Source of the DNA: an uncultured Candidatus Saccharibacteria bacterium
GTDB taxonomy: Bacteria > Patescibacteriota > Minisyncoccia > Phycocordibacterales > UBA5272
DNA: 55,712 nucleotides
Assembly (NCBI GenBank): GCA_964420875.1
Contig: CAYQUK010000002.1
Coordinates: 1 to 55,712, forward strand
Direction: 5' to 3'
The translations under genes and the position numbers were made by a program. Below the pieces are notes generated by a model that saw nothing but the letters and a program-made list of their open reading frames with translations, did not search any database and had not been told where the DNA came from. Positions 4,395 through 35,312 of this stretch are shown piece after piece (the stretch's first letter is position 1; the number at the start of each line of letters is the position of its first letter).

Positions 4395-4460
4395 TTTTTA
4401 ATTATAGCAAACTTTGAGAGTGTGAATTATTTTTATGAATGTTGATGCTACAATATACTG

Positions 4461-10445: not shown

Positions 10446-10504
10446 GTGTATATTGTACGACATTAAAAAATAAATCCCTAGTTGAAAATAGGACAAGAAA
10501 AAAA

Positions 10505-16394: not shown

Positions 16395-16488
16395 CGTAGT
16401 CCGTAAAACGGACGGGTAGACATTCATATTAACAGGGTATTGTTTATAGCGCAAGGCCCAATTTCTGCTTGGGTGATATACTGTTTTT

Positions 16489-18588: not shown

Positions 18589-18611
18589 TTTTATGTTAAA
18601 CTGACATCTAA

Positions 18612-20528: not shown

Positions 20529-20536
20529 AACATATT

Positions 20537-21322
20537 GTGTTTAAAACAAAGAAATCACTAGGACAAAACTTTCTCCGCTCCAGCGCCGCACTTGAGGCTA
20601 TTGTTAATTGCTCAGAGATAAAAGTCGGGGAGGTGGTGATAGAGATAGGTCCGGGTGAGGGTGTGCTGACTGAGAAAATATTAGCAGCCGGGGCAAAGCT
20701 GACAGCAATAGAAAAGGACGACCGATTGATAGAAATACTTGAGACCAACTTTGCAAAAGAGATAGATGAAAAAAGATTTCAGCTTCTTCATGCCGATGTG
20801 ACAGATGTTGATTTTGAGCAATTCAGAAAGGAGGGGCAGGGCTATAAAGTAATAGCCAATATCCCATACTATATAACAGGCCTCATAATGAGGAAATTAA
20901 TAGATGACAACGTGGCAACATCTCTCACACTACTAGTTCAAAAGGAGGTGGCTGAGAGGGCCTGCGCTCGTGATGGCAAGGAGTCACTGTTGTCACTATC
21001 AATACAGAGCTATGGTGTAGCAAAATACATTAAAACTGTACCTAGGGGATCATTTGCACCTATGCCAAATGTAGACAGCGCAATAATATACATAAAAAAG
21101 TACGAGAACAATGTTTTTAAGAATCAAAAAGAGAGAGATTATTTTTTTGAACTAATTCACGCCGGCTTTGCACATAAAAGAAAGACTTTGATGCATAATT
21201 TGAAAACATTTAATGAGAAAACAAGCAAAAATACTGAGTGGATTAAACATGTAGATGAAAAAGTTAGGGCGGAGGATGTGCATTTTGAGGATTGGGTAAG
21301 GCTGACACGTGATACAATTTAG
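20537..21322 (+). CDS. rsmA: 16S rRNA (adenine1518/1519-N6)-dimethyltransferase RsmA/KsgA
   Basis: LGQNFL, SAM-binding VIEIGPGEGVLT and NIPYYIT motifs. GTG start at 20537. Confidence 0.9.
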   Translation: MFKTKKSLGQNFLRSSAALEAIVNCSEIKVGEVVIEIGPGEGVLTEKILAAGAKLTAIEKDDRLIEILETNFAKEIDEKRFQLLHADVTDVDFEQFRKEGQGYKVIANIPYYITGLIMRKLIDDNVATSLTLLVQKEVAERACARDGKESLLSLSIQSYGVAKYIKTVPRGSFAPMPNVDSAIIYIKKYENNVFKNQKERDYFFELIHAGFAHKRKTLMHNLKTFNEKTSKNTEWIKHVDEKVRAEDVHFEDWVRLTRDTI

Positions 21323-21354
21323 TTGTGATAGACAAAAACACAGAGGAGACAACA

Positions 21355-22200
21355 ATGTCCAGAGAAAAGGCCTTTTTGATACTGGCTATTCTTGTATGTC
21401 TTGTTTCTTTTGCTGTTTATGGCCTATATCCCAACAGAAAAGATATACCAAAAATACCTGGGGGTGACACACAAAATGCTTTTATAGAAAACTATGGGCA
21501 AATATTAGACTTGGACAAAGATATTGATGGTAATGGGCAACCAGCTTGGCGTGAATTAGTATTTGGTGCAAATGCGAGCAGCACAGACAACTCTAGTACA
21601 GACAATCTGACTGTAGGTATGGCTCGTGACATAGTCGTACTGAATGCCTTAGCTAGTCAGAACCCAAATGTTGATCCTGATGTTTATGTTGCAGCCATGA
21701 CAGACGGTGCAGCACAACAAATATCAATAAAAGATGTGGGGCAAATACAAATATCTCCTGATAACTCTAGGGCAAATCTAAAAGAGTACGGCAACAACGC
21801 GGCAGTTATCTTTGGGGCTTTTTTTGGTAACGAACAAAAAGAAATAAAAGATGTTACAAAATATATGAACAGCAACAGTGTTGCAGACCTGAAAGCAATA
21901 AGGAGTTACCAATCTGAGGTAAATCTCGTTTGTGATAACATGAAGACCTATCCAGCGCCAAAATCTATAGCGACACTACATCGCACACTACTAGAGAGAT
22001 GCTATTTTTATAATGACGTGTTGTCAGCAATGTGGAACATAGACACAGATCCTACAAAAGCATTAGTAGCTGTGACTGTTTACAAAGACATGGTTACGGC
22101 TGAGACAGAGCTGTTAACAAGCTTTTCAGATTTCTTTGATAGCAACAATGTGGTATTTGGTGCCAACGATTATGGCAGAATTTTTAATAAAAAAATATGA
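21355..22200 (+). CDS. Membrane-anchored hypothetical protein, first gene of the T4SS-like locus
   Basis: ATG at 21355 preceded by AGAGGAGA. One N-terminal TM (AFLILAILVCLVSFAVYGLY). Its stop overlaps the start of the next gene. Confidence 0.5.
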   Translation: MSREKAFLILAILVCLVSFAVYGLYPNRKDIPKIPGGDTQNAFIENYGQILDLDKDIDGNGQPAWRELVFGANASSTDNSSTDNLTVGMARDIVVLNALASQNPNVDPDVYVAAMTDGAAQQISIKDVGQIQISPDNSRANLKEYGNNAAVIFGAFFGNEQKEIKDVTKYMNSNSVADLKAIRSYQSEVNLVCDNMKTYPAPKSIATLHRTLLERCYFYNDVLSAMWNIDTDPTKALVAVTVYKDMVTAETELLTSFSDFFDSNNVVFGANDYGRIFNKKI

Positions 22201-23876
22201 AAAAAATAATTATAAGTCTCTTTTTAGCTACAACCCTTTCAGTAAATACTTCTTTTGCTGTTTTGCCTGTGATAGATGGGGCAAATCTTGGCATACAAAC
22301 TTTTATGAAGGGATTGGAGATAGCAGCAAACAACCTATTTAGTGCTGCAAATATAAAAGAGTACGCTCTTGACCCACTAGCGTATGCAATAAAAGAGAGA
22401 GTAAAGACGCAACTAAAACAGGAGATAGTCAAATGGGCGACAGATGGTGGAACGGGCAAACCTCAATTCCTCGAGAACCCGGATAGATTCTTTACCAACC
22501 TAGCAACTCAAGAGCTAACAATCATCAAACGTGACATAATAGGCAACATTGTGGGGAATGACGAGGTTTTAAAGGCGTTGGTGAGTGGTAATGCCGAAGG
22601 ATACGCCAAAAAGTCTCTCGCTGAGTTCCTAGTTCCAACAGTAAATGTAAAAATACAAAACAACATTTGTGCTGCAGACAAATTGGCAAAGATGACAGCT
22701 GAGAATCCGACTGGTGCGGCTGAATTTAAAAGGAGATACTGTATAGCCGGCAACAGCACGAGCAGCAAACAGCAACAATATGACGCATTGCAGAACTGCT
22801 TTGCAAAGGACTTTTCTTGTGGTGGCTGGGATGCGTTCCTCTCTATGACACAAAAGCCATATCAAAACACCGAGACAGGACGCCTAACTGTGGCTCAATT
22901 ACAACTACAACAAAACCAGGCTGCCGCAACAACCAAAACAAATAATGAGCTCAATCGTGGGGGAGGATTCTTTAGTCAAAAAGTGTGTAAGAAGGGGGCA
23001 TTAAAAATAACAAACGACGATGAGGGCAATCCACTACCAGAGTCTAGTCAAATATGTACCGAGTATGAGACATTAACACCCGGAGACCAGATTAGGAACT
23101 TAACAAATGAGGTGCTCGGTGACCCGTTAAAACAACTACAACAGTCAGATGAAATCAGTGAGATTATAGTCAGTGCATTATTAACAAAATTACAATCAGT
23201 GGGTCTGCGAAAACTTAATGAGGTGGTGGCGGACGGTATCAACGGATTATCAAATGCTTTACGTGGTGGATCTGATGGGGCTGGGAATCTTCGTGACAGT
23301 GTGGCGGCAACAGGTAAGCCTGGTGACCCTCGTGTAGCTAGTACATCGGTGACAATAACAGATGCAGATCATCGCAACCTGACAGCTACAATGCTTCAAA
23401 TGATGAACAACACTCTAAAAGAGCACAATACAAATATTACTGTTGTTGTAGATGAGCTCAATAGATATCAGGCGCTAGCAGACAAATTGGCACAAATAGA
23501 ATTGTGTTATTCTGGAAAAGCATGGCTAACTATGCCGACCGTTGTACGCGATACAATAGATTCTCAAAAACAAAACATCGCCGCAAAGACTTTATCTCTT
23601 GCAAATGAATTATCTGTCTATAAAGGAAAATCAGATGACTTGGTTGCAGCCATAGAAACAGTAACCAGATCTCGTGATGCTGACGCAATAACCAACATAT
23701 TCAACGCCTATAACGCCGAGCTCTCTAGCAACTCATACCTAACCTCAGCAGTAGCCGACAAGAGAAAGCTAGATAACGAGACGCTTTATGCACAATTGGA
23801 CCAACTCAGCACAACATTTGACTCAATGTTAACCGAGTGTCAGAACGCAACTCAGGAAACAGGTGGTGGTAATTAA
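22197..23876 (+). CDS. Secreted protein with TrbJ/VirB5-like N-terminal motif (tentative)
   Basis: Signal peptide MKKIIISLFLATTLSVNTSFA. The mature end VLPVIDGANLGIQ resembles the PV(I/F)DxxNL motif that opens TrbJ/VirB5-type proteins. The rest is helical and Gln/Asn-rich. Confidence 0.5.
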   Translation: MKKIIISLFLATTLSVNTSFAVLPVIDGANLGIQTFMKGLEIAANNLFSAANIKEYALDPLAYAIKERVKTQLKQEIVKWATDGGTGKPQFLENPDRFFTNLATQELTIIKRDIIGNIVGNDEVLKALVSGNAEGYAKKSLAEFLVPTVNVKIQNNICAADKLAKMTAENPTGAAEFKRRYCIAGNSTSSKQQQYDALQNCFAKDFSCGGWDAFLSMTQKPYQNTETGRLTVAQLQLQQNQAAATTKTNNELNRGGGFFSQKVCKKGALKITNDDEGNPLPESSQICTEYETLTPGDQIRNLTNEVLGDPLKQLQQSDEISEIIVSALLTKLQSVGLRKLNEVVADGINGLSNALRGGSDGAGNLRDSVAATGKPGDPRVASTSVTITDADHRNLTATMLQMMNNTLKEHNTNITVVVDELNRYQALADKLAQIELCYSGKAWLTMPTVVRDTIDSQKQNIAAKTLSLANELSVYKGKSDDLVAAIETVTRSRDADAITNIFNAYNAELSSNSYLTSAVADKRKLDNETLYAQLDQLSTTFDSMLTECQNATQETGGGN

Positions 23877-23941
23877 AATTCTTAGGTTTTATATGTATTA
23901 AACAGTAGAGTAGGGCAACTCTTTGTGTTACACTTTATAAC

Positions 23942-26251
23942 GTGAAATCGCTGCGCTACATACTTGCTATATCGATTGTATTTGTTTCTTTTTCTGCTTT
24001 TATTTTTATAACTAAAGCTGAAAATGACCCTGTGCCTAGCTGTGACTTAGTAAGTGCTGTTATATACCCGTGCGTTGATAACAAGGGCAACCTGTGGAAC
24101 ACAGCAAAAGAAAGACAGGATGCAGCAAACGCAGCAGCTATCGCAGCACAGAAGGCAGCAGAAAATGGAACAATAAAGGTTTGCCCACAAAGTGCATACA
24201 CTTCTGGGGTGTTGGATTTTTTAAGTATAACAAAGGGGGTGTGCGTTTTTGTTGATTTTCTTTTAATTGCCATATCTTCAGTATTTGCCGGACTCATGTA
24301 TGTTTGTGCAGTATTGTTCGACTTTTCAGTTGATAAGTTCATATTAAAAATATCTACATTCTTTTTAGATGCATCAGGGCCCGGAGGTAATCAACAATAC
24401 ATATATAGCGCCTGGTCTGTTGTAAGAGATATGGCAAACATTGCTGCGTTTTTTGGGGCTGTGTACGCTGGATTCCTACGAATAATAGGACAGAATCAGG
24501 AGGATTTTAGAAAAGCCATCGCAAAACTAATACTTTTTGCCCTGCTGACCAACTTCTCATTTGCAATCTCAAAATTTGCAATAGATATGGCGAATGTTGT
24601 GTCTCTACAAATATACGGAGCGGCTGCGAGGTATCAGTTTGCAGGGAACAGCTTAGGCGCAAGTTCAAATGGCACCATAATATCTGACTATGGTATCAGC
24701 TCTGCATATATGCAGAACATGGGTATACAAGGGATGGTAGTAGATACAACAAAAGTTAATCCATCATCAGCGTTTAAAAATATTAACTCACTAACTGTCG
24801 TGATTATATCTATCATATTCTTTATTTTTGCTGGTTGGATGTTTTTAAAGGCTGCCATATTTATAATAGTGAGAACTTTTATATTGATCGGAGCAGTGGT
24901 CTTTTCTCCTCTTATGTTCATAGGTGGTCTGGTTCCTCAACTAACAAAAGTCCATGATAAATGGAGAGAGCTTTTCTTTGGAAATCTAATAGTGGCTCCG
25001 TTGATGATGATATTTATATGGCTCAGCTTACAAATACTTGGAGCATCTTATAAGATGCTAGGATTAGCAAATACCCAAAGTGGAACATGGGCTGAAGTAT
25101 TAGCTCAAACATCTCTTTTGGTTTTTGGTGGTTTATCACTACACCTAATGGCAAAATATGGTGAACAAGCGAGTGGGGCGGTGGGGCAGTTTGCGGTAAA
25201 TGTTTTGGGTGGGGCAGTGGGTGGTCTAGCGACAGCTGCGGCAACAGGAGGTGTTGGATTTGTGGCTCGTGCTGGAGCTGCGCGAGCGGCTGCGGCTGCG
25301 GGTAGTGTTGGTAAAAAATGGGTAGAAAAAGAAGGAGCTGGAAAGATGAGAAAGTTTGCTGGTGGAATGTTGCTAAAAGGTGGGGAGAGGCTGGAGAAAA
25401 CGGAAGTCTTTGGTAAATCTGCGTTTGGTATACGCAAGGCAGCAGAGGAGAAAATAGACGGTAAGCGCGAAACAGTCTTGCGTGAATATGGCCAAGCTTC
25501 ACGTGATCTGGGGTGGAAAGATAAATTGGGTCAAGCAAAATCTGAAAAAGAAATTAACTACATAAAAGACCAGTTGGTGCAGAAAAAAAAGTACGACTCT
25601 GCTGTACATGATGAAGAAATAAAAAATATAAATTCTAAACCGACTGTAAAGACTGACGGGCCTCGCGTCTTGGAAAAAGATAAAACCATCGCCAATAAAT
25701 TACACGAACAGATAGCAGCTCGCGACACAGCAACTGACGCGCAAATAAAATCAGAACAGGACCAAATAAAAACTGAAACTGAAAGTCTTATAAAAACAAG
25801 AGAGATATACAAAGAAAATCAAAAGAGGGGTGGGGCAACGGAGGAGGAGATGAAGAAAACTCAAGTATTTATTGATAATTTAAAAGCTGAGCTACCTAAA
25901 AAGTTAACAGAAGTATCAGAGAAGCTCAATAAACAAAAAGAAGAAATGACAGATTATGTGGGGTGGAAGGCTGAGTTGTCAGGCTTGGAAAATGAGTTTA
26001 CAAAAACAACGCTGGCATACAAAGCAGGAGGACTTGTGAGCGAAATGATAGAGCAGGATAAAAAAGATATAGCAACTGTTAAAAATCTTGTTACAAATAT
26101 AAAACCATTTACAACAGAGTTTGATAAAAACGGAACACAAACATCAGCCGAACAAGCCGCTCCAACACTAAAAGAAACATTAAACACAGAAGATACTAAA
26201 AAAATAACAGCAAACCTTTCTAAGGCTGGATCTCTTAGAAGTAAAAAATAA
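23942..26251 (+). CDS. Polytopic membrane protein, TrbL/VirB6-like
   Basis: 769 aa with an N-terminal signal/TM, at least six hydrophobic helices, a Gly/Ala-rich segment and a Lys/Glu-rich coiled-coil tail. Size, topology and position beside PrgI/VirB4 genes fit a VirB6 analogue. Confidence 0.55.
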   Translation: MKSLRYILAISIVFVSFSAFIFITKAENDPVPSCDLVSAVIYPCVDNKGNLWNTAKERQDAANAAAIAAQKAAENGTIKVCPQSAYTSGVLDFLSITKGVCVFVDFLLIAISSVFAGLMYVCAVLFDFSVDKFILKISTFFLDASGPGGNQQYIYSAWSVVRDMANIAAFFGAVYAGFLRIIGQNQEDFRKAIAKLILFALLTNFSFAISKFAIDMANVVSLQIYGAAARYQFAGNSLGASSNGTIISDYGISSAYMQNMGIQGMVVDTTKVNPSSAFKNINSLTVVIISIIFFIFAGWMFLKAAIFIIVRTFILIGAVVFSPLMFIGGLVPQLTKVHDKWRELFFGNLIVAPLMMIFIWLSLQILGASYKMLGLANTQSGTWAEVLAQTSLLVFGGLSLHLMAKYGEQASGAVGQFAVNVLGGAVGGLATAAATGGVGFVARAGAARAAAAAGSVGKKWVEKEGAGKMRKFAGGMLLKGGERLEKTEVFGKSAFGIRKAAEEKIDGKRETVLREYGQASRDLGWKDKLGQAKSEKEINYIKDQLVQKKKYDSAVHDEEIKNINSKPTVKTDGPRVLEKDKTIANKLHEQIAARDTATDAQIKSEQDQIKTETESLIKTREIYKENQKRGGATEEEMKKTQVFIDNLKAELPKKLTEVSEKLNKQKEEMTDYVGWKAELSGLENEFTKTTLAYKAGGLVSEMIEQDKKDIATVKNLVTNIKPFTTEFDKNGTQTSAEQAAPTLKETLNTEDTKKITANLSKAGSLRSKK

Positions 26252-26252
26252 T

Positions 26253-26846
26253 ATGAAACCAGAACTACGACAAGCATTAGACGAGGAAATATTAAAAGCA
26301 GGACCAGAACTGCAAACATTTTTAAATGATCAATATTTTAAAGACACCTTAAGCCTGATAGAAAGAGTTAATAAGTTAGACGCTGGCCAAGCTGTCTCAC
26401 TAGAGCTAGAGATCACAATGTTCCTGCTCGGCATCAGCGACTATCCATCTATCGAGGAGGCTTTGCGTGGTGAATTGGGTCAAAATGGACAAGTTGCCAA
26501 CGAGGCCACTGTACGTCAGGCTGTAAAAGACGTAGAGGCGTACATATTATCAAAAGTTCCAACAGCAAATGATTCGGTTAAAAAAGTTGAAATAAAAACT
26601 GACACTGAAACAGAAAAATCTGAAGCTGAAATACCTACAGCAGCTGGTAACCTTCATGACATCTTGTACAAAGAGTTGGATGTTAATAAGAAAGCTGAAT
26701 CTGTGGAGACAAAACCAGAACTAGATCCCATTTTAGAGATTAAACCGGAACAAATTACAGCCCCAGAGATAGTAGAACCAACAAAGCCTCTTGATTTTTA
26801 TAGAGAAAAAATAGGTGACGAGGATAAAAAAGTAAAGACTTTATAA
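26253..26846 (+). CDS. Acidic hypothetical protein in the T4SS-like locus
   Basis: 197 aa, starts 2 nt after the previous stop, Glu/Lys/Pro-rich C-terminal half, no recognisable motif. Confidence 0.5.
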   Translation: MKPELRQALDEEILKAGPELQTFLNDQYFKDTLSLIERVNKLDAGQAVSLELEITMFLLGISDYPSIEEALRGELGQNGQVANEATVRQAVKDVEAYILSKVPTANDSVKKVEIKTDTETEKSEAEIPTAAGNLHDILYKELDVNKKAESVETKPELDPILEIKPEQITAPEIVEPTKPLDFYREKIGDEDKKVKTL

Positions 26847-26865
26847 TATTTGGTATACTGTTTAG

Positions 26866-27240
26866 ATGCAATTTCGTGTACCACAATTCATAGATATAGA
26901 AGACAAAATACTTGGACCTCTTACTTGGAGACAATTCGCATATTGTCTGGGTGCGGCCGGTATAGCCTATCTGTCTATGCGTTTTATATCAAACAACATC
27001 TTGGCTCTCATTGTAGCCGCACCATTTTCTGGGCTGTTTTTAGCTTTAGCCTTTGTAAGAATCAATAACCAGCCCTTTGTAGATGTTATGGAGCACGCCA
27101 TCAACTACTTTTCAAAAAGTAACATATATACTTGGCAGAAAAAGGAGGGGTCGATGCAAACCATAACACCAGAAACAAACTCATTAAAAGAAAAATCACT
27201 AAGCCTCGACACTAAAGTCGTGGAAAGGGATGAGGAGTAG
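26866..27240 (+). CDS. PrgI-family (VirB3-like) membrane protein
   Basis: N-terminus MQFRVPQFIDIEDKILGPLTWRQF followed by two TM helices. This is the hallmark of the PrgI family found next to VirB4 in monoderm T4SS loci. Confidence 0.65.
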   Translation: MQFRVPQFIDIEDKILGPLTWRQFAYCLGAAGIAYLSMRFISNNILALIVAAPFSGLFLALAFVRINNQPFVDVMEHAINYFSKSNIYTWQKKEGSMQTITPETNSLKEKSLSLDTKVVERDEE

Positions 27241-27269
27241 CCGTTGATATCATGTATACTGTCTAGTAT

Positions 27270-27893
27270 ATGAAGGGGAATGCTTCACAATCTTTTGTAC
27301 CAATCAAAAATGTACGCGATGGACTAATCGAGCTGCAAAGTGGCGAGTATAGGGCGGTACTTATGACCAACTCACTCAATCTGTCTCTAAAGGGTGAAGA
27401 TGAACAGACTGCCATATTGTCACAATTCCAAAACTTTCTTAACTCTTTGGAATTTTCAGTGCAAATATTTGTAAAGAGTCGCCGTATGGACATAGCTCCA
27501 TATATAAAACTACTAGAGGAGAGGCTCGCCGTCGCAGAAGGCGAGCTGATCAAACTACAAATAGCAGAATACATCAACTATATAAAGACTTTTTCTGAGG
27601 AGACCAACATAATGTCAAAACAATTTTTTGTAGTTATACCATATTCTCCTGCCGTTCTCGGTGGTAACAGCAACATACCAACATTGTCATTTGGTGGAGA
27701 CAAAAACACAGAAGCAAAAACCGAGGTGGCTTTTCAAGAAATAGCCAGACAAATGGAACAGCGCATTTTGGTTGTGTCATCTGGGCTCACACGTTGTGGA
27801 CTGCGTGTAGAGAGACTCCAGAGCGAAGAGGTGGTCGAGTTATTTTATAATATATTCAACCCTAACGCTGAATATAAGGCCGTAATTAATTAA
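27270..27893 (+). CDS. Hypothetical protein resembling a VirB4/TraC N-terminal domain
   Basis: 207 aa immediately upstream of virB4. The pattern VPIKNVRDGLIELQSGEYRAVLMTNSLNLSLKGEDEQTAILSQFQNFLNSL parallels the N-terminal region of the following ATPase and of monoderm VirB4 proteins. Confidence 0.5.
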   Translation: MKGNASQSFVPIKNVRDGLIELQSGEYRAVLMTNSLNLSLKGEDEQTAILSQFQNFLNSLEFSVQIFVKSRRMDIAPYIKLLEERLAVAEGELIKLQIAEYINYIKTFSEETNIMSKQFFVVIPYSPAVLGGNSNIPTLSFGGDKNTEAKTEVAFQEIARQMEQRILVVSSGLTRCGLRVERLQSEEVVELFYNIFNPNAEYKAVIN

Positions 27894-27897
27894 AAAT

Positions 27898-29694
27898 ATG
27901 GGAATATTAGATTTTATACTAGGTAAAAAAGAGGAGGCTGTGGCAACGACTACAGCAGCAATACCCACAGGACCAAGCCTCCAAGACATCATTGCACCGT
28001 CTGCTTTAAGGGTGGAGTCAAAGGAGTTCCTCCTTGGTGATGTGCATGGGCGTGTGTATTTTGTAATGTCTTACCCCAGATATCTGAACGATAACTGGTT
28101 GTCTCCATTAATCAATCTAGATAAAGTGTTTGACGTTGGTATACACATCAGCCCTGTTGATACGGCTGATGTGATGAAAAAGTTCCAACGCAAAGTAGCC
28201 GAAGTACAAAGCCAAATAATGATAAAGGAGGAGAAGGGTATGGTGCGCGACCCGATGCTAGAGACAGCATATGAGGACCTCGAGAGTCTTCGTGATGACC
28301 TGATGCAGGCCCAGGAAAAGATGTTTGAGGTTGGGGTATATATCACAGTCTATGCCAGAGATGACAAGGATCTCGATCGTGTAGAAAAGGAGATCAAGGG
28401 TATACTGGAGAGCAAATTAATCAATATTCGTCCGGCGTATTTCCAACAAGATCAAGGAATAGTCACAACTATACCGTTAGGAAAGGATGAGTTAAAACAA
28501 CTAACAAAACTCAACACTTCACCGTTATCATCAATATTCCCATTTGTGTCTTTTGATTTGACTAGCGATAGGGGGATATTGTATGGAATAAACAGACACA
28601 ATGGGTCGTTGTTGCTGTTTGATAGGTTCTCAATGGAAAACTATAACTCCATAATCTTTGCAAAGTCTGGTGCCGGCAAATCCTTTACAACAAAATTGGA
28701 AATTCTCCGCACTCTCATGTTTGACACCCAGGTCATTATTATTGACCCTGAGCGCGAATATGAGACATTGACTGACGCAGTAGGTGGTAGATATTTTAAT
28801 ATATCACTCAGTAGTGATAACCACATCAATCCATTTGATCTATCTGCTCCGAGTGAGGACGAGAGTATGAGTGAGGTGCTACGCAGCAACATAGTGACTC
28901 TGGTTGGATTGTTTCGTGTAATGTTAGGAGGTCTCACGCCAGAGGAGGACGCCATCATTGACAGGGCCATCACTGAGACATACGCATTAAAAGACATTAC
29001 GCCAGATAGTGATTTTACAAAAATAGACCCACCTCTATTGTCTGATTTTGAAATGGTGTTGGGTGGTCTAGAGGGTAGCGAGAGTTTACAAGAGAGACTA
29101 CAAAAATATACAAAGGGGTCTTGGGCTGGGTTCCTCAATAACCCAACAAATGTAAACATAGATCAAAAATGTGTTTCGTTTTCAATACGAGATATGGAGG
29201 ACGAGCTCAAACCTGTGGCCATGTTCCTTATTACTCACTATATATGGAATAGTGTCAGAAAAGAATTGCGCAAGAGGTTGTTAGTTGTGGACGAGGCGTG
29301 GATCATGATGAAAACAGAGGACACCGCCAGCTTCCTATATGGCCTCGCAAAACGTGGTCGTAAATACTATTTAGGTCTCGCAACCATAACCCAGGATGTT
29401 AATGACTTTTTGAAAAGTGAATATGGTATTCCAATTATCACCAACTCTTCACTTCAGCTGCTATTGAAACAGTCTCCAACGTCTATAGATCTGGTGCAGA
29501 AAACTTTTAATCTGACAGATGAAGAGAAATTCCTCTTGCTTGAAAGTAATGTAGGTGAGGGCATATTCTTTGCAGGCCTGAAACATGTTGCTGTAAAGAT
29601 AATTGCCAGCCATACCGAGGAGCAGATAGTAACCAGTGACCCTTCAGAGATACTCCGTGTGCGAGAATTAAAACAAGGTATTAATAATTTATAG
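27898..29694 (+). CDS. VirB4/TraC-family type IV secretion ATPase
   Basis: Walker A AKSGAGKSFTTK, Walker B LLVVDEAW, and ATITQD (sensor-like), with a VirB4-type N-terminal domain. Confidence 0.85.
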   Translation: MGILDFILGKKEEAVATTTAAIPTGPSLQDIIAPSALRVESKEFLLGDVHGRVYFVMSYPRYLNDNWLSPLINLDKVFDVGIHISPVDTADVMKKFQRKVAEVQSQIMIKEEKGMVRDPMLETAYEDLESLRDDLMQAQEKMFEVGVYITVYARDDKDLDRVEKEIKGILESKLINIRPAYFQQDQGIVTTIPLGKDELKQLTKLNTSPLSSIFPFVSFDLTSDRGILYGINRHNGSLLLFDRFSMENYNSIIFAKSGAGKSFTTKLEILRTLMFDTQVIIIDPEREYETLTDAVGGRYFNISLSSDNHINPFDLSAPSEDESMSEVLRSNIVTLVGLFRVMLGGLTPEEDAIIDRAITETYALKDITPDSDFTKIDPPLLSDFEMVLGGLEGSESLQERLQKYTKGSWAGFLNNPTNVNIDQKCVSFSIRDMEDELKPVAMFLITHYIWNSVRKELRKRLLVVDEAWIMMKTEDTASFLYGLAKRGRKYYLGLATITQDVNDFLKSEYGIPIITNSSLQLLLKQSPTSIDLVQKTFNLTDEEKFLLLESNVGEGIFFAGLKHVAVKIIASHTEEQIVTSDPSEILRVRELKQGINNL

Positions 29695-29695
29695 T

Positions 29696-30667
29696 ATGAG
29701 ATATTTTATATTTATAATTTCACTCACTTTCGGCATGCAGATATCGTTAGCCCAAAACTTGCTACCGACACCGATAACAATAAGCACTATACCAGACACA
29801 CCAAAACCGGGTGAAGTCTTTATAATAAAAGCCAATAGCTTGTCAGTAGATCTTGGAAAATCAGACATATCTTGGAGTATAAATGGTAACGGTGTCGGTA
29901 GAGCTTTTGGCCAAAAAGAAATCAAAACAAGTATGCCATATGGCAACCAAGTTATATTAATAGAAGTAAATATAAAGTCCGTTAGCGGCGAAACTTTTTA
30001 CGCAAAAAAAACCATTAGTCCGAAAAGATTGATACTTATAACTGAGGCGGCTGACAGCTATGTTCCTTATTGGTATGCCGGTAAGGCGGAGGTGGCAAGG
30101 GGTGGTTACGCCAAGATATACGCCTACACGGAGATATACTCTGGCAACAAAAGACTGAAGCCGTCAGAAATGGTGTACAGCTGGTCTGTGCGTGATGAGC
30201 CGATCTTAGAGCAATCTGGTGTTGGTAGGGACACATTAACATATCGCATGCTGGACGAATATGGTGACAATGTCCCTGTGTCTGTATCTGTATCTCCCAT
30301 TGAAAACAGTGAAGAGGTAATAGAAAATACAACAATAAGGACTTTTAATCCAGAGATAATCATGTTTCTCGGTGATGAGTCTGGTGAGGCAGTGTCACGC
30401 GCAGCAATAGTAGGACAAAAAAACATATCCTCAAAAGCTTTTTCTATAATATCCGAGCCTTTTTTCTTTTCTACAGACTACACCAAAAACAAAAACCTAG
30501 TATATATATGGGAAGTAAATGACCTAGCCCAAACAGATAACTCAAATAGTGTTAGGTTTTTCAAATTACCCGAGGGCACCTCTGGCAACGTTACAATAAC
30601 CTCAAAAATAGAGCATGTGAATAGAATATTCCAAACAGCGAGCAGTAGAATACGTCTCAGTTTCTAA
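29696..30667 (+). CDS. Secreted hypothetical protein in the T4SS-like locus
   Basis: Signal peptide MRYFIFIISLTFGMQISLAQ. Beta-rich sequence. Starts 2 nt after the virB4 stop. Confidence 0.55.
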   Translation: MRYFIFIISLTFGMQISLAQNLLPTPITISTIPDTPKPGEVFIIKANSLSVDLGKSDISWSINGNGVGRAFGQKEIKTSMPYGNQVILIEVNIKSVSGETFYAKKTISPKRLILITEAADSYVPYWYAGKAEVARGGYAKIYAYTEIYSGNKRLKPSEMVYSWSVRDEPILEQSGVGRDTLTYRMLDEYGDNVPVSVSVSPIENSEEVIENTTIRTFNPEIIMFLGDESGEAVSRAAIVGQKNISSKAFSIISEPFFFSTDYTKNKNLVYIWEVNDLAQTDNSNSVRFFKLPEGTSGNVTITSKIEHVNRIFQTASSRIRLSF

Positions 30668-30691
30668 AATTTTTCATGATACACTGTTTTT

Positions 30692-31534
30692 ATGCAAGGT
30701 GAGCCAGTAAAATACATACTATTAGAACCCATAACAGGGAAAGCTGGTACACAGTCTGTAATTATTGGCCCTGATGGGCTGTCTAACTATCTAAATAGTA
30801 CTTACAGCTTTGTGTTGATTTTAATAGCTATCACAGCGGTTTTTTACCTCATATACGGTGGTATGGTGTATCTCACCACAGACATAGCCAACAAACAAAA
30901 ACAAGGTAAAGAGATAATTGTCCGCGTGATCACCGGGTTAGTGTTTGTTTTTAGTGTGTGGGTAATACTAAACTCAATCAATCCAAATATATTAAAAAAT
31001 AACCTAACTCTAGGTGTGGTAAATGTGGTTACAGGCACACCCTCTGACACGGGGGACGATGAGTCTCCTACTGATCCCACAACACCACCAAACACCGCCG
31101 GGGAACAATGTAATGAAATACCTTCTTCTGAGCTGGCTTCTGTTCAGGGCAGACAACTTAAAAAAGATGCTGCTGCAAACTTTAATCTTATGTATGCTGA
31201 GGCACAGAAGGCCGGCATAACATTAACCCTAACTTCTGCATATCGCAGCCCGTCTGCCCAGACAGCACTATGGAATCAATATGGATGTAAACTCGTAAAC
31301 GGCAAAGCTAGCTGCCCTAATAACAAAAGTGTTGCAGTGCCGTGCTCTCTTGGTGGTAGTGGGTCGAATCACTCTACTGGTTATGCTATAGACATAGCAA
31401 TACCTGGGTGTTCAAACGGTAACAGTGTTTGCAACCACCCAATAAGAACTTGGATGCTTAACAATGGTGGTAAATATGGTTTTAACAGCGCACTGCCAAA
31501 AGATCCCATACATTGGTCACCGAGTGGAAGATAA
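30692..31534 (+). CDS. Fusion of CPR-type T4SS pilin-like domain and VanY/M15B D-Ala-D-Ala carboxypeptidase domain
   Basis: N-terminal LLEPITG.., two TM helices, and SVWVILNSINPNIL typical of the T4SS pilin family of Patescibacteria. A Pro/Thr linker follows. C-terminal LTSAYRSPSAQ and HSTGYAIDI motifs are of the VanY/peptidase M15 type. Confidence 0.7.
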   Translation: MQGEPVKYILLEPITGKAGTQSVIIGPDGLSNYLNSTYSFVLILIAITAVFYLIYGGMVYLTTDIANKQKQGKEIIVRVITGLVFVFSVWVILNSINPNILKNNLTLGVVNVVTGTPSDTGDDESPTDPTTPPNTAGEQCNEIPSSELASVQGRQLKKDAAANFNLMYAEAQKAGITLTLTSAYRSPSAQTALWNQYGCKLVNGKASCPNNKSVAVPCSLGGSGSNHSTGYAIDIAIPGCSNGNSVCNHPIRTWMLNNGGKYGFNSALPKDPIHWSPSGR

Positions 31535-31538
31535 ATAT

Positions 31539-32624
31539 ATGCAAGAAAATAATAATAATACAAAGAAAATAATTATAATAAGTGTGGTGGCGGTGATTCT
31601 GCTGTCTGTTTTTGCTTATGTACTGCTTTCAAAAGGCTCCGCTCCGGCAACAAATAACACAAACAACACAACGCAAAACAATCCAGTTTTCCCAGATTTT
31701 AGCTTTGCAAATATTTTCGGTGGGGTGGGGGAAGAAACATCCAACAACACAGAAATAAACACTACCAACCTTACCGCTAGCAACGTTTTTAAGGTCTGGG
31801 AGGGTGAGACACTAGGCGCCTCAACACTTGATGATGCCAGTGTTATATTTATAGACAAAAAAACGGGGGAGATTAGGGTGTCGGCTTATCCATACACATC
31901 ATCATCTGTGGTGGACACTATTTCAGGTGGATGTTTTGACGCAAAAATATCATCTACTGGTAAAAAGGCTTTGATATCATGCCCAGATGGTTTGTATATT
32001 TGGGGTGACTCTAGATTTACATTCATAGATCAGACAGCTTTTGATTTTGATTTTATTGGTGGGGGGAATGATTATGTTTACTTGTCTGCCAACACCAACG
32101 GTTTTGTTCTTGTACAAAACAAGGCTGGCAAAACATCAATACTCGGAGGTCTCTCTTTGCGCGATGTGACAATATTAAAATCAGACGAAGGGTATGTTTA
32201 TATAACAGAGAAACCAAACGGCAGATCAGAAAAATTGTTTGTTTATTCTTTTAAAAATAAAGATTTTTATTTTGTTGGCGACTTGGCAACACAAAACATA
32301 TCTCCGTTTCAGAGGAATTATTCAAAGGAAAAATGTTTCACCTATGACACAGATTTTAATTTTTGTTTTGGTATAGATTTAGAAAATTTTAATTTTACAA
32401 ACTGGAGAAAGGGGTTAATCTCTTCTGTTGATCAGGCTTTTGCTTACTCGTTCACAGATGCAGAGTATGTTGGTGTGGGTCTGTTGTCGCAAAACATAGA
32501 CACATTAAAGACTGGGTACAATGCAACCAGTGGTGATGCATACTTGATAGACAAAAATACTTCTGATTTGTTTGTTGTAAACATGGCTCAGTTTGTAGAA
32601 GCAACAGGGGATCACGACCACTAG
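31539..32624 (+). CDS. Membrane-anchored hypothetical protein, last gene of the T4SS-like locus
   Basis: ATG at 31539. N-terminal TM (IIIISVVAVILLSVFAYVLL), an Asn/Thr-rich linker, then a beta-rich exterior domain. Confidence 0.55.
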   Translation: MQENNNNTKKIIIISVVAVILLSVFAYVLLSKGSAPATNNTNNTTQNNPVFPDFSFANIFGGVGEETSNNTEINTTNLTASNVFKVWEGETLGASTLDDASVIFIDKKTGEIRVSAYPYTSSSVVDTISGGCFDAKISSTGKKALISCPDGLYIWGDSRFTFIDQTAFDFDFIGGGNDYVYLSANTNGFVLVQNKAGKTSILGGLSLRDVTILKSDEGYVYITEKPNGRSEKLFVYSFKNKDFYFVGDLATQNISPFQRNYSKEKCFTYDTDFNFCFGIDLENFNFTNWRKGLISSVDQAFAYSFTDAEYVGVGLLSQNIDTLKTGYNATSGDAYLIDKNTSDLFVVNMAQFVEATGDHDH

Positions 32625-32627
32625 GAA

Positions 32628-33299
32628 TTACTTTGCAAAGTGTTTATCTATTATCTTTTTTATAGCCAAGGTTTGGAATATACCAAAAACATTTGAAGTT
32701 ATAATATATAGGACGAGTCCAGCGGGTAGGAAAATAGATGTCATAAGTATCAAAACCGGCATAAAATACTTCATTTGTATTGACATCATTTTTGCAAAGT
32801 CTTTTTGGAATCCATCTTTTGCATCCTGGGCAGGGGCCATGTCTTTTGTGCTGAAATGCATCAGAACATACATGCTCGCAAAGGCTAATAACGCTAGAAA
32901 AACGCTTGGTTTTGCTATCTCTAAACCAAACATTGTTACTGTGTCTGTTATTATTTTTAATTCTTTTACAAGTATCTGGTATAGACCGATAAATATAGGG
33001 AGTTGTATGAAAAGCCCCAACACTCCAGCAAAAGGCTTAATATTGTTCTCTTTGTACAGTTTTGATAACTCTGCCCCTAGGATTTGTGGCGCCCCTTTAT
33101 GTTTTTCTCTTAATTTATCCACCTGTCCTTGTACCAACTTCATTCCTTTTGAGGTCTTTGCAGCTGAGATGTTTAGGGGAAATAGTAAAACCTTAACAAA
33201 AACAGTAAAGGCAACAATAGCTAAACCAATATCCCCTGTGCTAATAAAGAAAAAATGTAGCAGGGTAGATAAGGGAGTTATGATTATAGTATTCCACAT
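32628..33299 (-). CDS. yidC: Membrane protein insertase YidC (short, monoderm type)
   Basis: 223-aa polytopic protein in the conserved rpmH-rnpA-yidC order. It has the amphipathic KLREKHKG..LSKLYKENNIKPF loop typical of YidC/Oxa1. Confidence 0.85.
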   Translation of the reverse strand: MWNTIIITPLSTLLHFFFISTGDIGLAIVAFTVFVKVLLFPLNISAAKTSKGMKLVQGQVDKLREKHKGAPQILGAELSKLYKENNIKPFAGVLGLFIQLPIFIGLYQILVKELKIITDTVTMFGLEIAKPSVFLALLAFASMYVLMHFSTKDMAPAQDAKDGFQKDFAKMMSIQMKYFMPVLILMTSIFLPAGLVLYIITSNVFGIFQTLAIKKIIDKHFAK

Positions 33300-33535
33300 A
33301 GGTTTTCTTTGATTGTTTTATAGCTTGGTATTGTTTCCAGGGGTTTTTTTATATATAGGGTTGTGTTTTTGCTTGTTTTGTTTGTGTTTTCTTTTACCAA
33401 CTCAGAATAAGCATAACACGCTCTACGTTTTAAAAGGTTGCGTTTTGTGGCTTTTTTAATATATTTCTTTGAAATAACTACAGTTAAGGGCTTTTTTGCC
33501 TCTTTTGTGTTTTTTATATTAAAAATATCAAGCAT
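33284..33535 (-). CDS. rnpA: Ribonuclease P protein component (short)
   Basis: Basic 83-aa ORF directly downstream of rpmH and overlapping the yidC start. Contains an RNLLKRR-type motif. The call rests mainly on synteny. Confidence 0.6.
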   Translation of the reverse strand: MLDIFNIKNTKEAKKPLTVVISKKYIKKATKRNLLKRRACYAYSELVKENTNKTSKNTTLYIKKPLETIPSYKTIKENLCGIL

Positions 33536-33540
33536 GAATA

Positions 33541-33678
33541 TTAATCAGCAGATAGTTTCTTGCGTCCTTTTTGTCTTCTTGCTGCAACCACCTTTTTACC
33601 TGTTGCTGAGGCCATTCTAACCAGGAATCCGTGTGTTGTGTATCTCTTTTTGTTTTTTGGTTGATATGTAACTGACAT
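33541..33678 (-). CDS. rpmH: 50S ribosomal protein L34
   Basis: Not in the ORF track (45 aa). My translation of the minus strand is [45 protein letters not shown], the canonical L34 pattern. Confidence 0.9.
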
Positions 33679-33756
33679 GAGGCTATTCTATAATAATTTT
33701 AAGCCTTTGACAAGGTACACATATTTCTAAATAAAGCGTATACTCTATTTCAACAT

Positions 33757-35094
33757 ATGGACTACGAACAGCTTTGGAATACCGTTTTGTCTCAAATAGG
33801 GTTAGAAGTCTCTAGGGTTAATTTTAATACTTGGTTTAAAAACTCCAGAATGGTTGATTATAAAGATGGGGATGTGACTGTGGGGGTGCCAAATCAGTTT
33901 ATAAAAGACTGGTTGGAGCAGAAATATCAAAAAGATTTACTAAGAATACTCCGTTCTGTTCATGAAGGAGTAAGATCACTATCTTTTTCTGTTGTTAGAT
34001 TTGATACACCACCAAAAAAGACACAATTAATACAAACAAGTAACGGAGCTCTACCTCTAGACAACCTATACATCAACAGAGAGGATGGTTTAAATCCAAA
34101 ATACACATTTGATAGTTATATTGTCGGACCATTTAACGAAGTTGCTCATGTTTCTGCTCAAGCGATAATACAAAACCCAGGGCTTTCTTATAACCCTTTC
34201 TTTGTTTATGGGAATACAGGCCTCGGAAAGACTCATTTGTTGCAAGCTGTTGGAAACGCGATAAAAAAGAAATACCCTGAGAAAAAAGTTTTTTATATAT
34301 CTCTTGAAAGATTTTATATGGAAATGGTAAATGCAATACAACAAAGCCGCGTCCCTCATTTTAAAGAAAAATATAGGAAATTTGATGTTTTTATAATGGA
34401 TGATATACAATTCATAACAGGTAAAGACAAGACTCAAGATGAGTTGTTCCATCTTTTTAATATAATGTATGAAACAAATAGACAAATTATCTTTTCTTCT
34501 GATGTTCACCCGAATTTTATAATAGGGTTAGAGGAGAGGCTTCAATCTAGGTTCAATCAGGGTATGGTGGTTGATGTTGAATCTCCAACTTTTGAGTCTC
34601 GTCTTGCGATACTGCGCAAAAAAACAAAAGATCACGGAGATAAGTTGTCCGATGAGGTTCTGGAGTATATAGCTGAGACGGTGCATGGTAATATACGAGA
34701 ACTTGAGGGTATTTTAACCAACTTAATAACTCAATCTGAGATTAAAAAGATAGTGTTATCTCTTTCTGATGTTAAAAGTTATCTTAAAAACAACATAAAA
34801 GCAAAGAAATCAGTATCTATTCCTGAGATAGTTAAAACTGTTGCTGATTATTATCATGTTAACGATGCTTTGATTTATAACAAAACTAGAAGAAAAGATA
34901 TTATCAAACCGAGACAGATAATAATGTATATCCTCCGTGAGGAGTATGATATATCTTATCCTGTTATTGGGGATAAGCTTGGGGGTAGAGATCACACTAC
35001 AGTTATTCATTCTTATGAGAAGATAAAAAAAGAGCTTGCAAAAGACCCTCATTTGGTAAAAGAGATTGACGATATACGTTCTATTATTGTTTAA
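33757..35094 (+). CDS. dnaA: Chromosomal replication initiator DnaA
   Basis: Walker A GNTGLGKTHL, Walker B FIMDDIQF, sensor and box VII motifs, and the C-terminal DNA-binding signature GGRDHTTVIHSYEKI. Confidence 0.95.
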   Translation: MDYEQLWNTVLSQIGLEVSRVNFNTWFKNSRMVDYKDGDVTVGVPNQFIKDWLEQKYQKDLLRILRSVHEGVRSLSFSVVRFDTPPKKTQLIQTSNGALPLDNLYINREDGLNPKYTFDSYIVGPFNEVAHVSAQAIIQNPGLSYNPFFVYGNTGLGKTHLLQAVGNAIKKKYPEKKVFYISLERFYMEMVNAIQQSRVPHFKEKYRKFDVFIMDDIQFITGKDKTQDELFHLFNIMYETNRQIIFSSDVHPNFIIGLEERLQSRFNQGMVVDVESPTFESRLAILRKKTKDHGDKLSDEVLEYIAETVHGNIRELEGILTNLITQSEIKKIVLSLSDVKSYLKNNIKAKKSVSIPEIVKTVADYYHVNDALIYNKTRRKDIIKPRQIIMYILREEYDISYPVIGDKLGGRDHTTVIHSYEKIKKELAKDPHLVKEIDDIRSIIV

Positions 35095-35312
35095 TAAAAT
35101 CTGTGTATAAACTGTTTATAAAAAGTTAAAACTTTACAAGTTTATATTTTGTGTTTTTATTAACTTTTGTTTTACTTGTTTTTTAATGTTTTAGTTTTAC
35201 TGATAATTTAAAAAAGTCTTTTGTTGTTAGGTTTTTTAGTTATACACCTAAAACACAGATATATATTTAGATAGGGTTTTCTTTTTTAATAATAAACATC
35301 TATAATATAGAT
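35095..35312. other. Probable oriC (dnaA-dnaN intergenic region)
   Basis: 218-bp very AT-rich gap. DnaA-box matches: TGTGTATAA (35102-35110, fits TGTGNATAA), TGTTTATAA (35113-35121, one mismatch) and TTATACACC (35240-35248, one mismatch). AT-only tracts could serve as a DUE. Confidence 0.55.

Follow-up and report, generated by a model that had tools for sequence, protein, structure and literature searches.

A further example of the resident Patescibacteria type IV secretion system: ten genes between ksgA and yidC-dnaA in a Paceibacteria-like genome

A type IV secretion system (T4SS) locus that carries neither a coupling protein nor a relaxase may be the remnant of a mobile element, one part of a dispersed conjugation system, or a dedicated apparatus of the cell surface, and this is the question raised by ten genes at positions 21325-32624 of contig CAYQUK010000002.1 (assembly GCA_964420875.1), a 55,712-nucleotide stretch of DNA, hereafter the window, deposited under the name of an uncultured Candidatus Saccharibacteria bacterium. 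The present analysis suggested that the locus is very likely a resident, vertically inherited T4SS of Paceibacteria-type Patescibacteria, a lineage-specific offshoot of the monoderm (MPF_FATA) conjugation apparatus that serves exchange at host contact, not conjugation. It matches, and is thus a further example of, the kind of system already published for Patescibacteria (Wang et al., 2023; Quinonero-Coronel et al., 2025), so that the locus, although genuine and widely conserved, is no novelty.

The ten open reading frames (ORFs; g1 to g10 in their order) were found to be co-directional on the + strand and tightly packed, with spacers or overlaps of -4 to 65 nt, between ksgA and a convergent yidC, which was in good agreement with the gene arrangement given in the original prediction. 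Two of the starts were ambiguous, namely that of g1, for which GTG 21325 is possible as opposed to the previously taken ATG 21355, and that of g10, for which 31464 is possible and 31539 more plausible. The left border of the module is formed by ksgA (20537..21322, + strand; RrnaAD, PF00398, 1.4e-50), a conserved housekeeping neighbor that follows uvrD on the upstream side, while the right border is the origin region with yidC, dnaA and dnaN (32628..36416; Pfam 60KD_IMP, Bac_DnaA and DNA_pol3_beta), in which yidC occupies 32628-33299 on the - strand and dnaA lies 1.1 kb 3' of the last locus gene. The G+C content of the locus (0.39-0.41) was comparable to that of the upstream flank (0.40-0.42).

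The T4SS core was recognized in the contiguous g5-g6-g7 segment (26866-29694), in which a PrgI/VirB3 gene and a TrsD-like ORF adjoin virB4. The g5 product (26866..27240, + strand) matched PF12666 at 4.7e-11, its 43.5 bits exceeding the gathering cut-off of 27, and is thus predicted to be a membrane protein of the PrgI/VirB3 family that anchors VirB4. The g6 product (27270..27893, + strand) was identified as a TrsD-like stand-alone N-terminal domain of VirB4, matching NF045975 (VirB4_plasma, positions 102-233) at 4.8e-13 and NF041427 (TrsD, TrsD/TraD family) at 8e-7, and a separate ORF of about 210 aa was likewise present in 78 related loci. The g7 product (27898..29694, + strand) was assigned as a VirB4 ATPase of the MPF_FATA (CD1110) type based on its match to NF045971 (2.2e-113; 380 bits against a cut-off of 325), and PF19044 (5e-26) and AAA_10 were also matched; its translation contains the Walker A motif SGAGKS and the Walker B motif VVDEAW, and it is predicted to be the motor of the system. 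Since the match of g7 covers model positions 166-732 and g6 matches the N-terminal part, the two together constitute one split VirB4. All three of these assignments, made originally from the sequence without any profile search, were therefore upheld by curated profiles, those of g5 and g7 above the respective cut-offs.

In order to be a conjugative element, such a core has to be accompanied by the machinery of DNA processing. Pfam and NCBIfam scans took in the larger ORFs of the window, the unscanned ones all being shorter than 200 aa and thus too short for a VirD4 or a relaxase, and no VirD4/TraG-type or FtsK-type coupling protein and no relaxase were found among the scanned ORFs. A tblastn search with all Prg/Pcf proteins of pCF10 against the window and 80 related loci (up to 21.8 kb each, within 10 kb of virB4) returned PrgJ (VirB4) only, with neither PcfC nor PcfG. 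At the borders of the locus there were no flanking or att-like repeats, no tRNA and no integrase; the single tRNA gene of the window is located 21 kb from the locus, and its sole recombinase, a XerC/D-type enzyme (9522-10496), is separated from the locus by housekeeping genes. The intergenic gaps are so small that they leave no room for an oriT. The features of a conjugative element, that is, a relaxase, a type IV coupling protein (T4CP), an oriT, integration or replication functions and boundaries, were hence not found at the locus, as the original prediction had noted for the adjacent VirD4, relaxase, oriT and integrase, and a linked coupling protein and relaxase were either lost from it or never present.

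To see whether this arrangement is kept elsewhere, we compared the locus with the best 80 of more than 579 VirB4-bearing relatives, taking one genome per species; the VirB4 identity across these 80 genomes was 65-99%. ORFs were called in the related loci, many of which end at contig ends, and hidden Markov models (HMMs) were iterated from each window protein. All ten genes had orthologues in 47-78 of the 80 loci, and the order ksgA-g1-g2-g3-g4-PrgI-TrsD-VirB4-g8-g9-g10-yidC(-)-dnaA-dnaN was nearly constant. Among those of the 80 genomes with contigs long enough to show it, most had the same slot between ksgA and yidC/dnaA occupied, with the ten genes collinear. By position, orthologues were counted in about 47 loci for g1, 69 for g4 (between g3 and PrgI), 73 for g5, 73 for g8 (directly past VirB4) and 61 for g10 (after g9), while ksgA lay upstream of the module, frequently as its immediate neighbor, in about 35 related loci and the yidC-dnaA-dnaN order was repeated in about 50-57. 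The survey of related genomes that had been put forward along with the original prediction thus found both the ten-gene order and the site to be kept in most of the 80 relatives. Rare rearrangements of this otherwise fixed site were observed in three loci that depart from the usual context: in L054, dnaA-dnaN lie 5' of the T4SS core, and in L049 and L074, other genes replace downstream or upstream members.

The selection acting on the locus was estimated from the ratio of nonsynonymous to synonymous substitution rates (dN/dS) against the sister genome L001, of about 85-88% DNA identity. All ten genes are under purifying selection with dN/dS values of 0.008-0.22. The core showed the lowest values (VirB4, 0.008; TrsD-like protein, 0.014; PrgI, 0.023), comparable to that of DnaA (0.005), followed by g8 (0.069), g2 (0.076), g1 (0.11), g10 (0.12), g4 (0.17), g3 (0.18) and the pilin fusion encoded by g9 (0.22), the fastest in the locus, so that the envelope-exposed members with values of 0.11-0.22 evolve 10-25 times faster than the core. 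VirB4 was also the best-conserved protein of the neighborhood, its median identity being 68.6% compared with 52.5% for DnaA. These values bear on the explanation that the locus is a decaying, non-functional remnant of an integrative and conjugative element (ICE) that has lost its relaxase, coupling protein and integrase. Such an origin would agree with the lack of an adjacent T4CP or relaxase and with the fact that the closest characterized relatives, the CD1110/pCF10-type VirB4 and TrsD of pGO1, are conjugative. However, a remnant would be expected neither to hold a constant site and ten-gene order in most related genomes, nor to show a dN/dS of 0.008-0.22 in every gene with a VirB4 as constrained as DnaA, nor to equal its flanks in G+C with no integrase, tRNA or att-like repeat at its borders; its genes are, furthermore, packed with ksgA and uvrD, and a homologous cluster is essential in Southlakia epibionticum (PMC10633639). 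Because the site is fixed and the selection purifying, a decaying mobile element can be practically excluded. The original view that this does not look like a conjugative element was likewise strengthened by the housekeeping, origin-side DNA around the locus, its flank-like G+C and its fixed slot in most relatives.

A second explanation is that the locus works in conjugation or DNA export together with a coupling protein and a relaxase encoded elsewhere in the genome. In other systems, T4CP genes are frequently found at a distance from virB4, and 5,713 VirD4 homologues, mostly far from virB4, have been counted in 2,918 Patescibacteria genomes along with 109 relaxases (Quinonero-Coronel et al., 2025; PMC12102498). 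The same survey, however, found relaxases to be almost absent from the phylum, the 109 being confined to 103 genomes, and in its account, which cites Wang et al. (2023), the distant T4CP homologue of S. epibionticum is non-essential whereas the T4SS genes are essential. Moreover, nothing resembling a T4CP was present within 10 kb of virB4 in the 80 relatives, and an origin-adjacent, universally conserved and housekeeping-like position would be unexpected for a conjugation module. We thus consider a dispersed conjugation system improbable here, and a resident T4SS with another role the far better explanation.

This resident T4SS was in good agreement with the system that Quinonero-Coronel et al. 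(2025; PMC12102498) delineated across Patescibacteria, whose VirB4 is sister to MPF_FATA. The present locus shares with it the MPF_FATA-type VirB4, TrsD and PrgI/VirB3 adjoining virB4, a VirB2-like pilin gene and, on weak support, a VirB6-like gene nearby, a VirB1-type hydrolase encoded with virB4 as in Paceibacteria, the lack of a nearby relaxase or T4CP, and the location on the side of dnaA, dnaN, ksgA, rnpA and rpmH. Nothing essential differs; six members found here were left unnamed or only partly named in that survey, namely the protein with a TrbJ/VirB5-type signature, the Ig-repeat protein, the TolB-like propeller, the helical anchored protein, the acidic cytoplasmic protein and the pilin-hydrolase fusion, whose enzyme domain is swapped among relatives.

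The functional side of the comparison comes from S. epibionticum ML1, in which transposon sequencing (Tn-seq) revealed that the origin-proximal genes SEML1_0006-0019 are essential for epibiotic growth, although the cluster has no recognizable coupling protein or relaxase (Wang et al., 2023; PMC10633639). Table S2 of that study lists VirB6-like proteins, an NTF2-like protein, PrgI, a TrsD-like protein, VirB4, an M15 domain, a lysozyme/protease protein and six pilins. Our locus shares with SEML1_0005-0019 the origin-proximal chromosomal position, the absence of a recognizable T4CP or relaxase in the cluster, and the succession of VirB6-like (here on weak support), PrgI, TrsD-like and VirB4 proteins followed by hydrolases including an M15 DD-peptidase domain. 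Six free pilins, two large VirB6-like proteins, an NTF2-like (VirB8-like) protein and a separate lysozyme/cysteine-protease protein are found only in S. epibionticum, whereas our locus has a single, peptidase-fused pilin domain, no NTF2-like member that we could find, and the Ig-repeat and TolB-like proteins in addition. The two organisms also differ in class (Saccharimonadia for S. epibionticum and Paceibacteria here), and essentiality has been shown for S. epibionticum alone. As the homologous cluster is essential for epibiotic growth, a role in exchange at host contact fits the present locus well. Together with the fixed origin-side site and the lack of a linked T4CP or relaxase, these published conclusions (PMC12102498; PMC10633639) are in line with the earlier proposal of a dedicated surface apparatus in an ultra-small cell, which we consider probable.

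With regard to the characterized MPF_FATA systems of pCF10 (Prg/Pcf) and pGO1 (Trs), the locus shares the VirB6-VirB3-VirB4-hydrolase order, with g3 as the probable VirB6 member, as in prgH-prgI-prgJ-prgK, as well as the CD1110-family VirB4 of pCF10, whose PrgJ matched all 81 VirB4 genes with about 26% identity, and the TrsD-type separate VirB4 N-domain of pGO1. On the other hand, no PcfC-type T4CP, PcfG-type relaxase, PrgA/B/C adhesins or PrgL-type VirB8-like protein was found here, the locus is chromosomal and vertically inherited instead of plasmid-borne, and it has pilin and VirB5-like elements that the Gram-positive systems lack.

Among these elements is g2 (22197..23876, + strand), which encodes a secreted, helical 559-aa protein with a Sec signal and a mature N-terminus, AVLPVIDGANL, of the TrbJ/VirB5 type. 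The N-terminal signature of the window protein, AVLPVIDGANLGIQ, reads AQWVVIDPTNLIQNT in the orthologue of L003 and AIIVFDPSNF or similar in others, and may be compared with AQWVVVDPTNLVQNT in TrbJ and AQWVVSDPGNLAQG in a Bacteroides DUF4141 protein, so that a mature N-terminal signature VV[IV]DPxNLxQN is common to g2 orthologues, TrbJ and DUF4141 proteins. Of 40 g2 orthologues, two matched Pfam DUF4141 (1e-7) and two to three matched the NCBIfam TrbJ models (1e-5 to 3e-5), and when one g2 orthologue was searched by tblastn against 7.3 Gb of plasmids, 12 of the 14 weak matches were trbJ or DUF4141 genes. An hhalign comparison of g2 with TrbJ gave an E-value of 2.4e-4 over 38 columns, compared with 0.12-0.71 for reversed controls. 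In addition, g2 is located immediately 5' of g3, mirroring the trbJ-trbL and DUF4141-traJ orders. We take the DUF4141 protein to be TraI of CTnDOT, which is consistent with its position directly before traJ. TraI of CTnDOT is homologous to VirB5 (Guglielmini et al., 2014; PMC4027160).

The likeness of g2 to P-type Trb and Bacteroidota Tra systems thus comprises the N-terminal signature and the placement of a VirB5-like gene immediately 5' of a probable VirB6-like one, whereas, at 559 aa, g2 has more than double the length of its counterparts (about 210-240 aa), no outer-membrane core genes (VirB7/9/10) are present, and the VirB4 lineage is different. An AlphaFold2 (AF2) model of g2 (mean predicted local distance difference test score, pLDDT, 67.5) was helical with a confident four-helix C-terminal bundle; neither a Pfam match to the VirB5 family (PF07996) nor the TraC/TrwJ fold was obtained. 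Because the similarity spans only the signal peptide and about 17 mature residues, at which point it ends, we do not call g2 a member of the VirB5/TrbJ family but a protein with a VirB5/TrbJ-type N-terminal signature, and a candidate for a VirB5-like stalk or tip subunit. The resemblance to TrbJ/VirB5 in the original prediction accordingly stood as regards the signature, but not as regards homology of the protein body or a match in fold. Our literature search found no report of a VirB5/TrbJ-like subunit in a T4SS of the Patescibacteria clade.

The adjacent g3 (23942..26251, + strand; GTG start) encodes a polytopic 769-aa protein, in which hydropathy analysis indicated a signal or anchor segment, about 6-8 transmembrane (TM) helices and a long charged C-terminal tail. 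The window protein itself had no Pfam or PDB match, an HMM search with its TM core retrieved a very large family (25,223 clusters at 50% identity) with only near relatives among the matches listed and no link to TrbL, a tblastn search of the TM core against plasmids gave no match, and homologue searches with the g3 and g2 alignments yielded only close, unannotated relatives. On the other hand, one of 38 g3 orthologues matched Pfam TrbL (6e-5), and hhalign aligned the same conserved R..P..P segment with PrgH (E-value 9e-3) and TraJ_Bf (1.3e-3), reversed controls giving 0.02-0.16. A phmmer search with TrbL/TraJ against 68 g3 orthologues gave a best E-value of 3.6e-4 and eight collinear matches below 0.02, with the best reversed control at 0.052. 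The gene is positioned after the VirB5-like gene and, past g4, before PrgI, as in trbJ-trbL, DUF4141-traJ and prgH-prgI. The earlier VirB6/TrbL-like assignment was thus favored by the 6-8 TM helices, the position and weak profile matches in the expected direction, but its margin over the controls is modest, and we regard g3 as probably, on weak support, an extended VirB6/TrbL-like channel subunit.

A pilin-M15 peptidase fusion had also been proposed originally, and this assignment was substantiated by profiles for both parts. The g9 product (30692..31534, + strand) consists of a T4SS (VirB2-like) pilin domain with two TM helices (PF18895, 8.4e-10; 39 bits vs a cut-off of 26.6), a Pro/Thr linker and a VanY/M15B peptidoglycan peptidase domain (PF02557 VanY, 1.2e-15). 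When aligned with LdcB/YodJ of Bacillus subtilis (4OX3), it retained the SxYRS and H..G.A.D motifs, with SAYRS and NHSTGYAID conserved and DPIHW downstream in the sequence, and the C-terminal domain would accordingly contain the H-x6-D zinc-binding motif, the C-terminal His and the SxxR substrate motif of VanY/M15B enzymes. Among 67 g9 orthologues, PF18895 was kept in 47 while the C-terminal domain changed (VanY/M15 in 8, SLT in 6-8, NlpC/P60 in 6, YkuD in 1 and DUF2272 in 1), and the pilin-domain ORFs of related loci were mostly 270-780 aa, i.e., fusions. The slot after g8 thus encodes a pilin-type membrane module with a changeable cell-wall hydrolase, which by analogy would be the functional counterpart of VirB1 in the place of VirB1/PrgK. 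A pilin-domain HMM detected no second pilin-domain ORF, hence no free pilin, in the window, and g9 of the window and its near relatives is without a leader peptide; the fusion may polymerize, cap a filament or merely anchor the enzyme. In eight loci (L006, L010, L012, L013, L015, L016, L018 and L021), two pilin-domain fusion genes flank the TolB-like gene (g9-g10-g9). The N-terminal pilin modules of such pairs are nearly identical, e.g., in L006, pointing to a recent duplication in which the C-terminal domain was exchanged.

Six of the proteins (g1, g2, g3, g4, g8 and g10) had no significant Pfam or NCBIfam match of their own, and PDB profile searches with g3, g2, g1 and g4 gave nothing specific. 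Hydropathy analysis indicated that g1 (21325..22200, + strand) is a bitopic membrane protein with one N-terminal TM helix (residues 16-34), and its AF2 model (pLDDT 84; predicted template modeling score, pTM, 0.72) comprised helices only, in line with a helical ectodomain; Foldseek retrieved no PDB match with an E-value below 0.7. Since the model is confidently all-helical and has no PDB match, g1 was rejected as a VirB8/NTF2-like protein. The g4 product (26253..26846, + strand) is acidic (41 Asp and Glu vs 25 Lys and Arg), has no TM segment and presumably resides in the cytoplasm; a helical domain at its N-terminus is conserved, as is a DPYRE-like motif at its C-terminus, in which D181, Y183 and E185 are nearly invariant, and no Pfam or PDB relative was found.

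The remaining two members are predicted to reside in the envelope. The g8 gene (29696..30667, + strand), starting 1 nt past the virB4 stop, encodes an exported or anchored protein with three Ig-like/PKD-like beta-sandwich repeats, each having an invariant Trp (W60, W163 and W272); its family profile matched Hoc Ig-like domains (2e-4), and matches of its orthologues included BiPBP_C (7), Ig_3 (5) and PKD families. In L001 (11799-12925), two ORFs of 163 and 212 aa take the place of g8 while all neighbors are intact, the split reflecting a frameshift, an error of assembly or recent pseudogenization. The g10 product (31539..32624, + strand) has one TM segment and appeared to be a membrane-anchored TolB-like beta-propeller, its family profile matching TolB propellers at 3e-4 to 2e-3; of 48 orthologues, six carried PG_binding_1 and four PD40, and hhalign of the g10 family with PrgL showed no similarity. 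The five genes that had been called unassignable in the original prediction are not orphans, being conserved members of the module.

Several of these observations weigh against the interpretation of the locus as a T4SS for host contact. The VirB8/NTF2-like fold was not obtained in g1, g2, g8 or g10, g1 and g2 being helical, g8 Ig-like and g10 TolB-like. The g2-TrbJ similarity is limited to the signal peptide and about 17 mature residues, and Foldseek of the g2 model against the PDB gave generic coiled-coil or helical matches only (E-values of 0.17 or higher), while the VirB6 assignment of g3 barely exceeds the reversed controls. The sole pilin domain seen in the window is fused to an enzyme and has no leader peptide, and a true polymerizing pilus is thus unproven for this locus. 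The absence of a VirD4 homologue and of a free pilin was established within the window, and either may lie elsewhere in the genome. Finally, wastewater runs labelled as metatranscriptomic RNA-Seq carry the locus (16500-36400) as 20-kb contigs with flat depth. As the depth in these runs (X1-X3) was flat over both strands and intergenic DNA, they probably contain DNA carry-over and are unusable as evidence of expression; other runs with the sequence were river and freshwater metagenomes.

Taking the assignments together, a mechanism may be proposed in which a VirB4 hexamer, with its separate N-domain, would dock on PrgI and VirB6 and drive the building of a short tube or pilus-like conduit that spans the envelope. 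The VirB5-like protein would seat on VirB6 and cap or nucleate the conduit, the pilin-anchored hydrolase would open the wall locally, be it the cell's own or that of the host, and the Ig-like and propeller proteins would scaffold the conduit in the wall. The apparatus would thereby serve exchange on contact with a host cell, by taking up its macromolecules or nutrients or by delivering proteins, and would not conjugate DNA. In keeping with such an apparatus, T4SS pilins have been found to be strongly expressed in Paceibacteria in culture (PMC10936435), and tubular structures, possibly T4SS pili, have been observed where a cultivated relative meets its host (bioRxiv 10.64898/2026.06.21.733656). 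A FEMS review treats these systems as T4SSs that may form pili in monoderms (PMC12857230).

The direction of this exchange bears on a further explanation, in which the locus is a ComB- or Ced-like importer that takes up host DNA, RNA or other macromolecules as food and exports no effectors. T4SSs that import DNA with no T4CP are represented by ComB of H. pylori and Ced of archaea. Such importers are also discussed in PMC12102498, and import has been proposed by this 2025 survey and by a FEMS review (PMC12857230). Patescibacteria lack nucleotide synthesis, and a cultivated relative feeds on host RNA and forms tube-like structures at the interface (bioRxiv 10.64898/2026.06.21.733656). The weak matches of g7 to the CedB/CedD models point in the same direction, but they span the ATPase core only; no cargo, direction or nucleic-acid-binding component was identified in the locus, and Wang et al. 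(2023) favor protein export or another role. We consider pure import quite possible, though short of probable; it falls under the best explanation, in which the direction is left open, as one of its variants and is not an exclusive rival of the contact-dependent exchange proposed above.

A bolder version, which we find rather unlikely, would have a monoderm cell build a pilus-like tube from parts thought to be restricted to diderms, with a VirB5/TrbJ-like cap, a VirB6-like base and pilins bearing interchangeable wall-cutting enzymes, in order to drill the host wall and import macromolecules. If true, the conduit that drills the host wall would be enzymatically armed on outward-facing pilin C-termini. 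Neither the VirB5-like member nor the idea of armed pilins was described in the papers covered by our search.

As to how the locus may be transcribed, an extended -10-like element, TGnTAYAnT, was observed 6-7 nt 5' of the start codon at 4446-4463, 16474-16491, 21310-21327, 23926-23944, 26851-26868 and 30677-30694. Of its 11 matches in the window, six fall precisely at called gene starts, namely those of pgk, a 699-aa ORF, g1 (GTG), g3 (GTG), PrgI and g9, and the strict pattern gave 3 matches vs 0.09 expected. Upstream of 21325 the sequence reads TGATACAAT-N6-GTG, placing the element 6 nt before the g1 start, and directly upstream of PrgI it reads TGGTATACT-N6-ATG; the same arrangement was seen before PrgI in 14 of 70 related loci and before g3 in 17 of 64. 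This pattern suggests leaderless or near-leaderless mRNAs and four transcription units in the locus, g1-g2, g3-g4, PrgI to g8, and g9-g10. A scan for promoter and terminator consensus sequences performed no better than shuffles.

The lineage of the genome that bears the locus also deserves attention. The label Saccharibacteria is attached to L001, L002 and about 30 other loci. In the VirB4 tree, however, records of uncultured Candidatus Saccharibacteria, which belong to one TPA_asm series, interleave with Paceibacterota, Nomurabacteria and Yonathbacteria, some being sister to these at distances below 0.1. The label is hence unreliable, and that of the nearest metagenome-assembled genomes was rejected on account of this interleaving at short distances with Paceibacterota-type records; the lineage looks Paceibacteria-like rather than Saccharimonadia. 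Elsewhere in the window, the scans of the larger ORFs identified housekeeping genes, including tpiA, pgk, an ECF sigma factor, a ComM-like Mg-chelatase ATPase and a class A penicillin-binding protein, as well as a class I (Trp/Tyr-type) tRNA synthetase, ruvB, a PilB-type ATPase, tsaE and polA. The 699-aa ORF (16489-18588), located 5' of uvrD, had no Pfam family; it was 69% identical to its counterpart in L001, compared with 92-99% for its neighbors, and was found in 2 of the 80 loci, indicating a fast-evolving, lineage-restricted protein.

The locus described herein thus provides a clean and complete ten-gene reference module for Paceibacteria with per-gene selection data, illustrating no new principle. 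It offers three leads, the VirB5/TrbJ-like subunit beside a probable VirB6-like one, the pilin-anchored hydrolases with swapped enzyme domains and the VirB8-like fold that was not found, which could guide structural work in cultivable relatives such as Minisyncoccus. The class of system to which it belongs is required for growth as an epibiont in the single species tested, is among the few machines that nearly all ultra-small bacteria belonging to the candidate phyla radiation (CPR) keep, and is the leading candidate for the means by which these cells tap their hosts.

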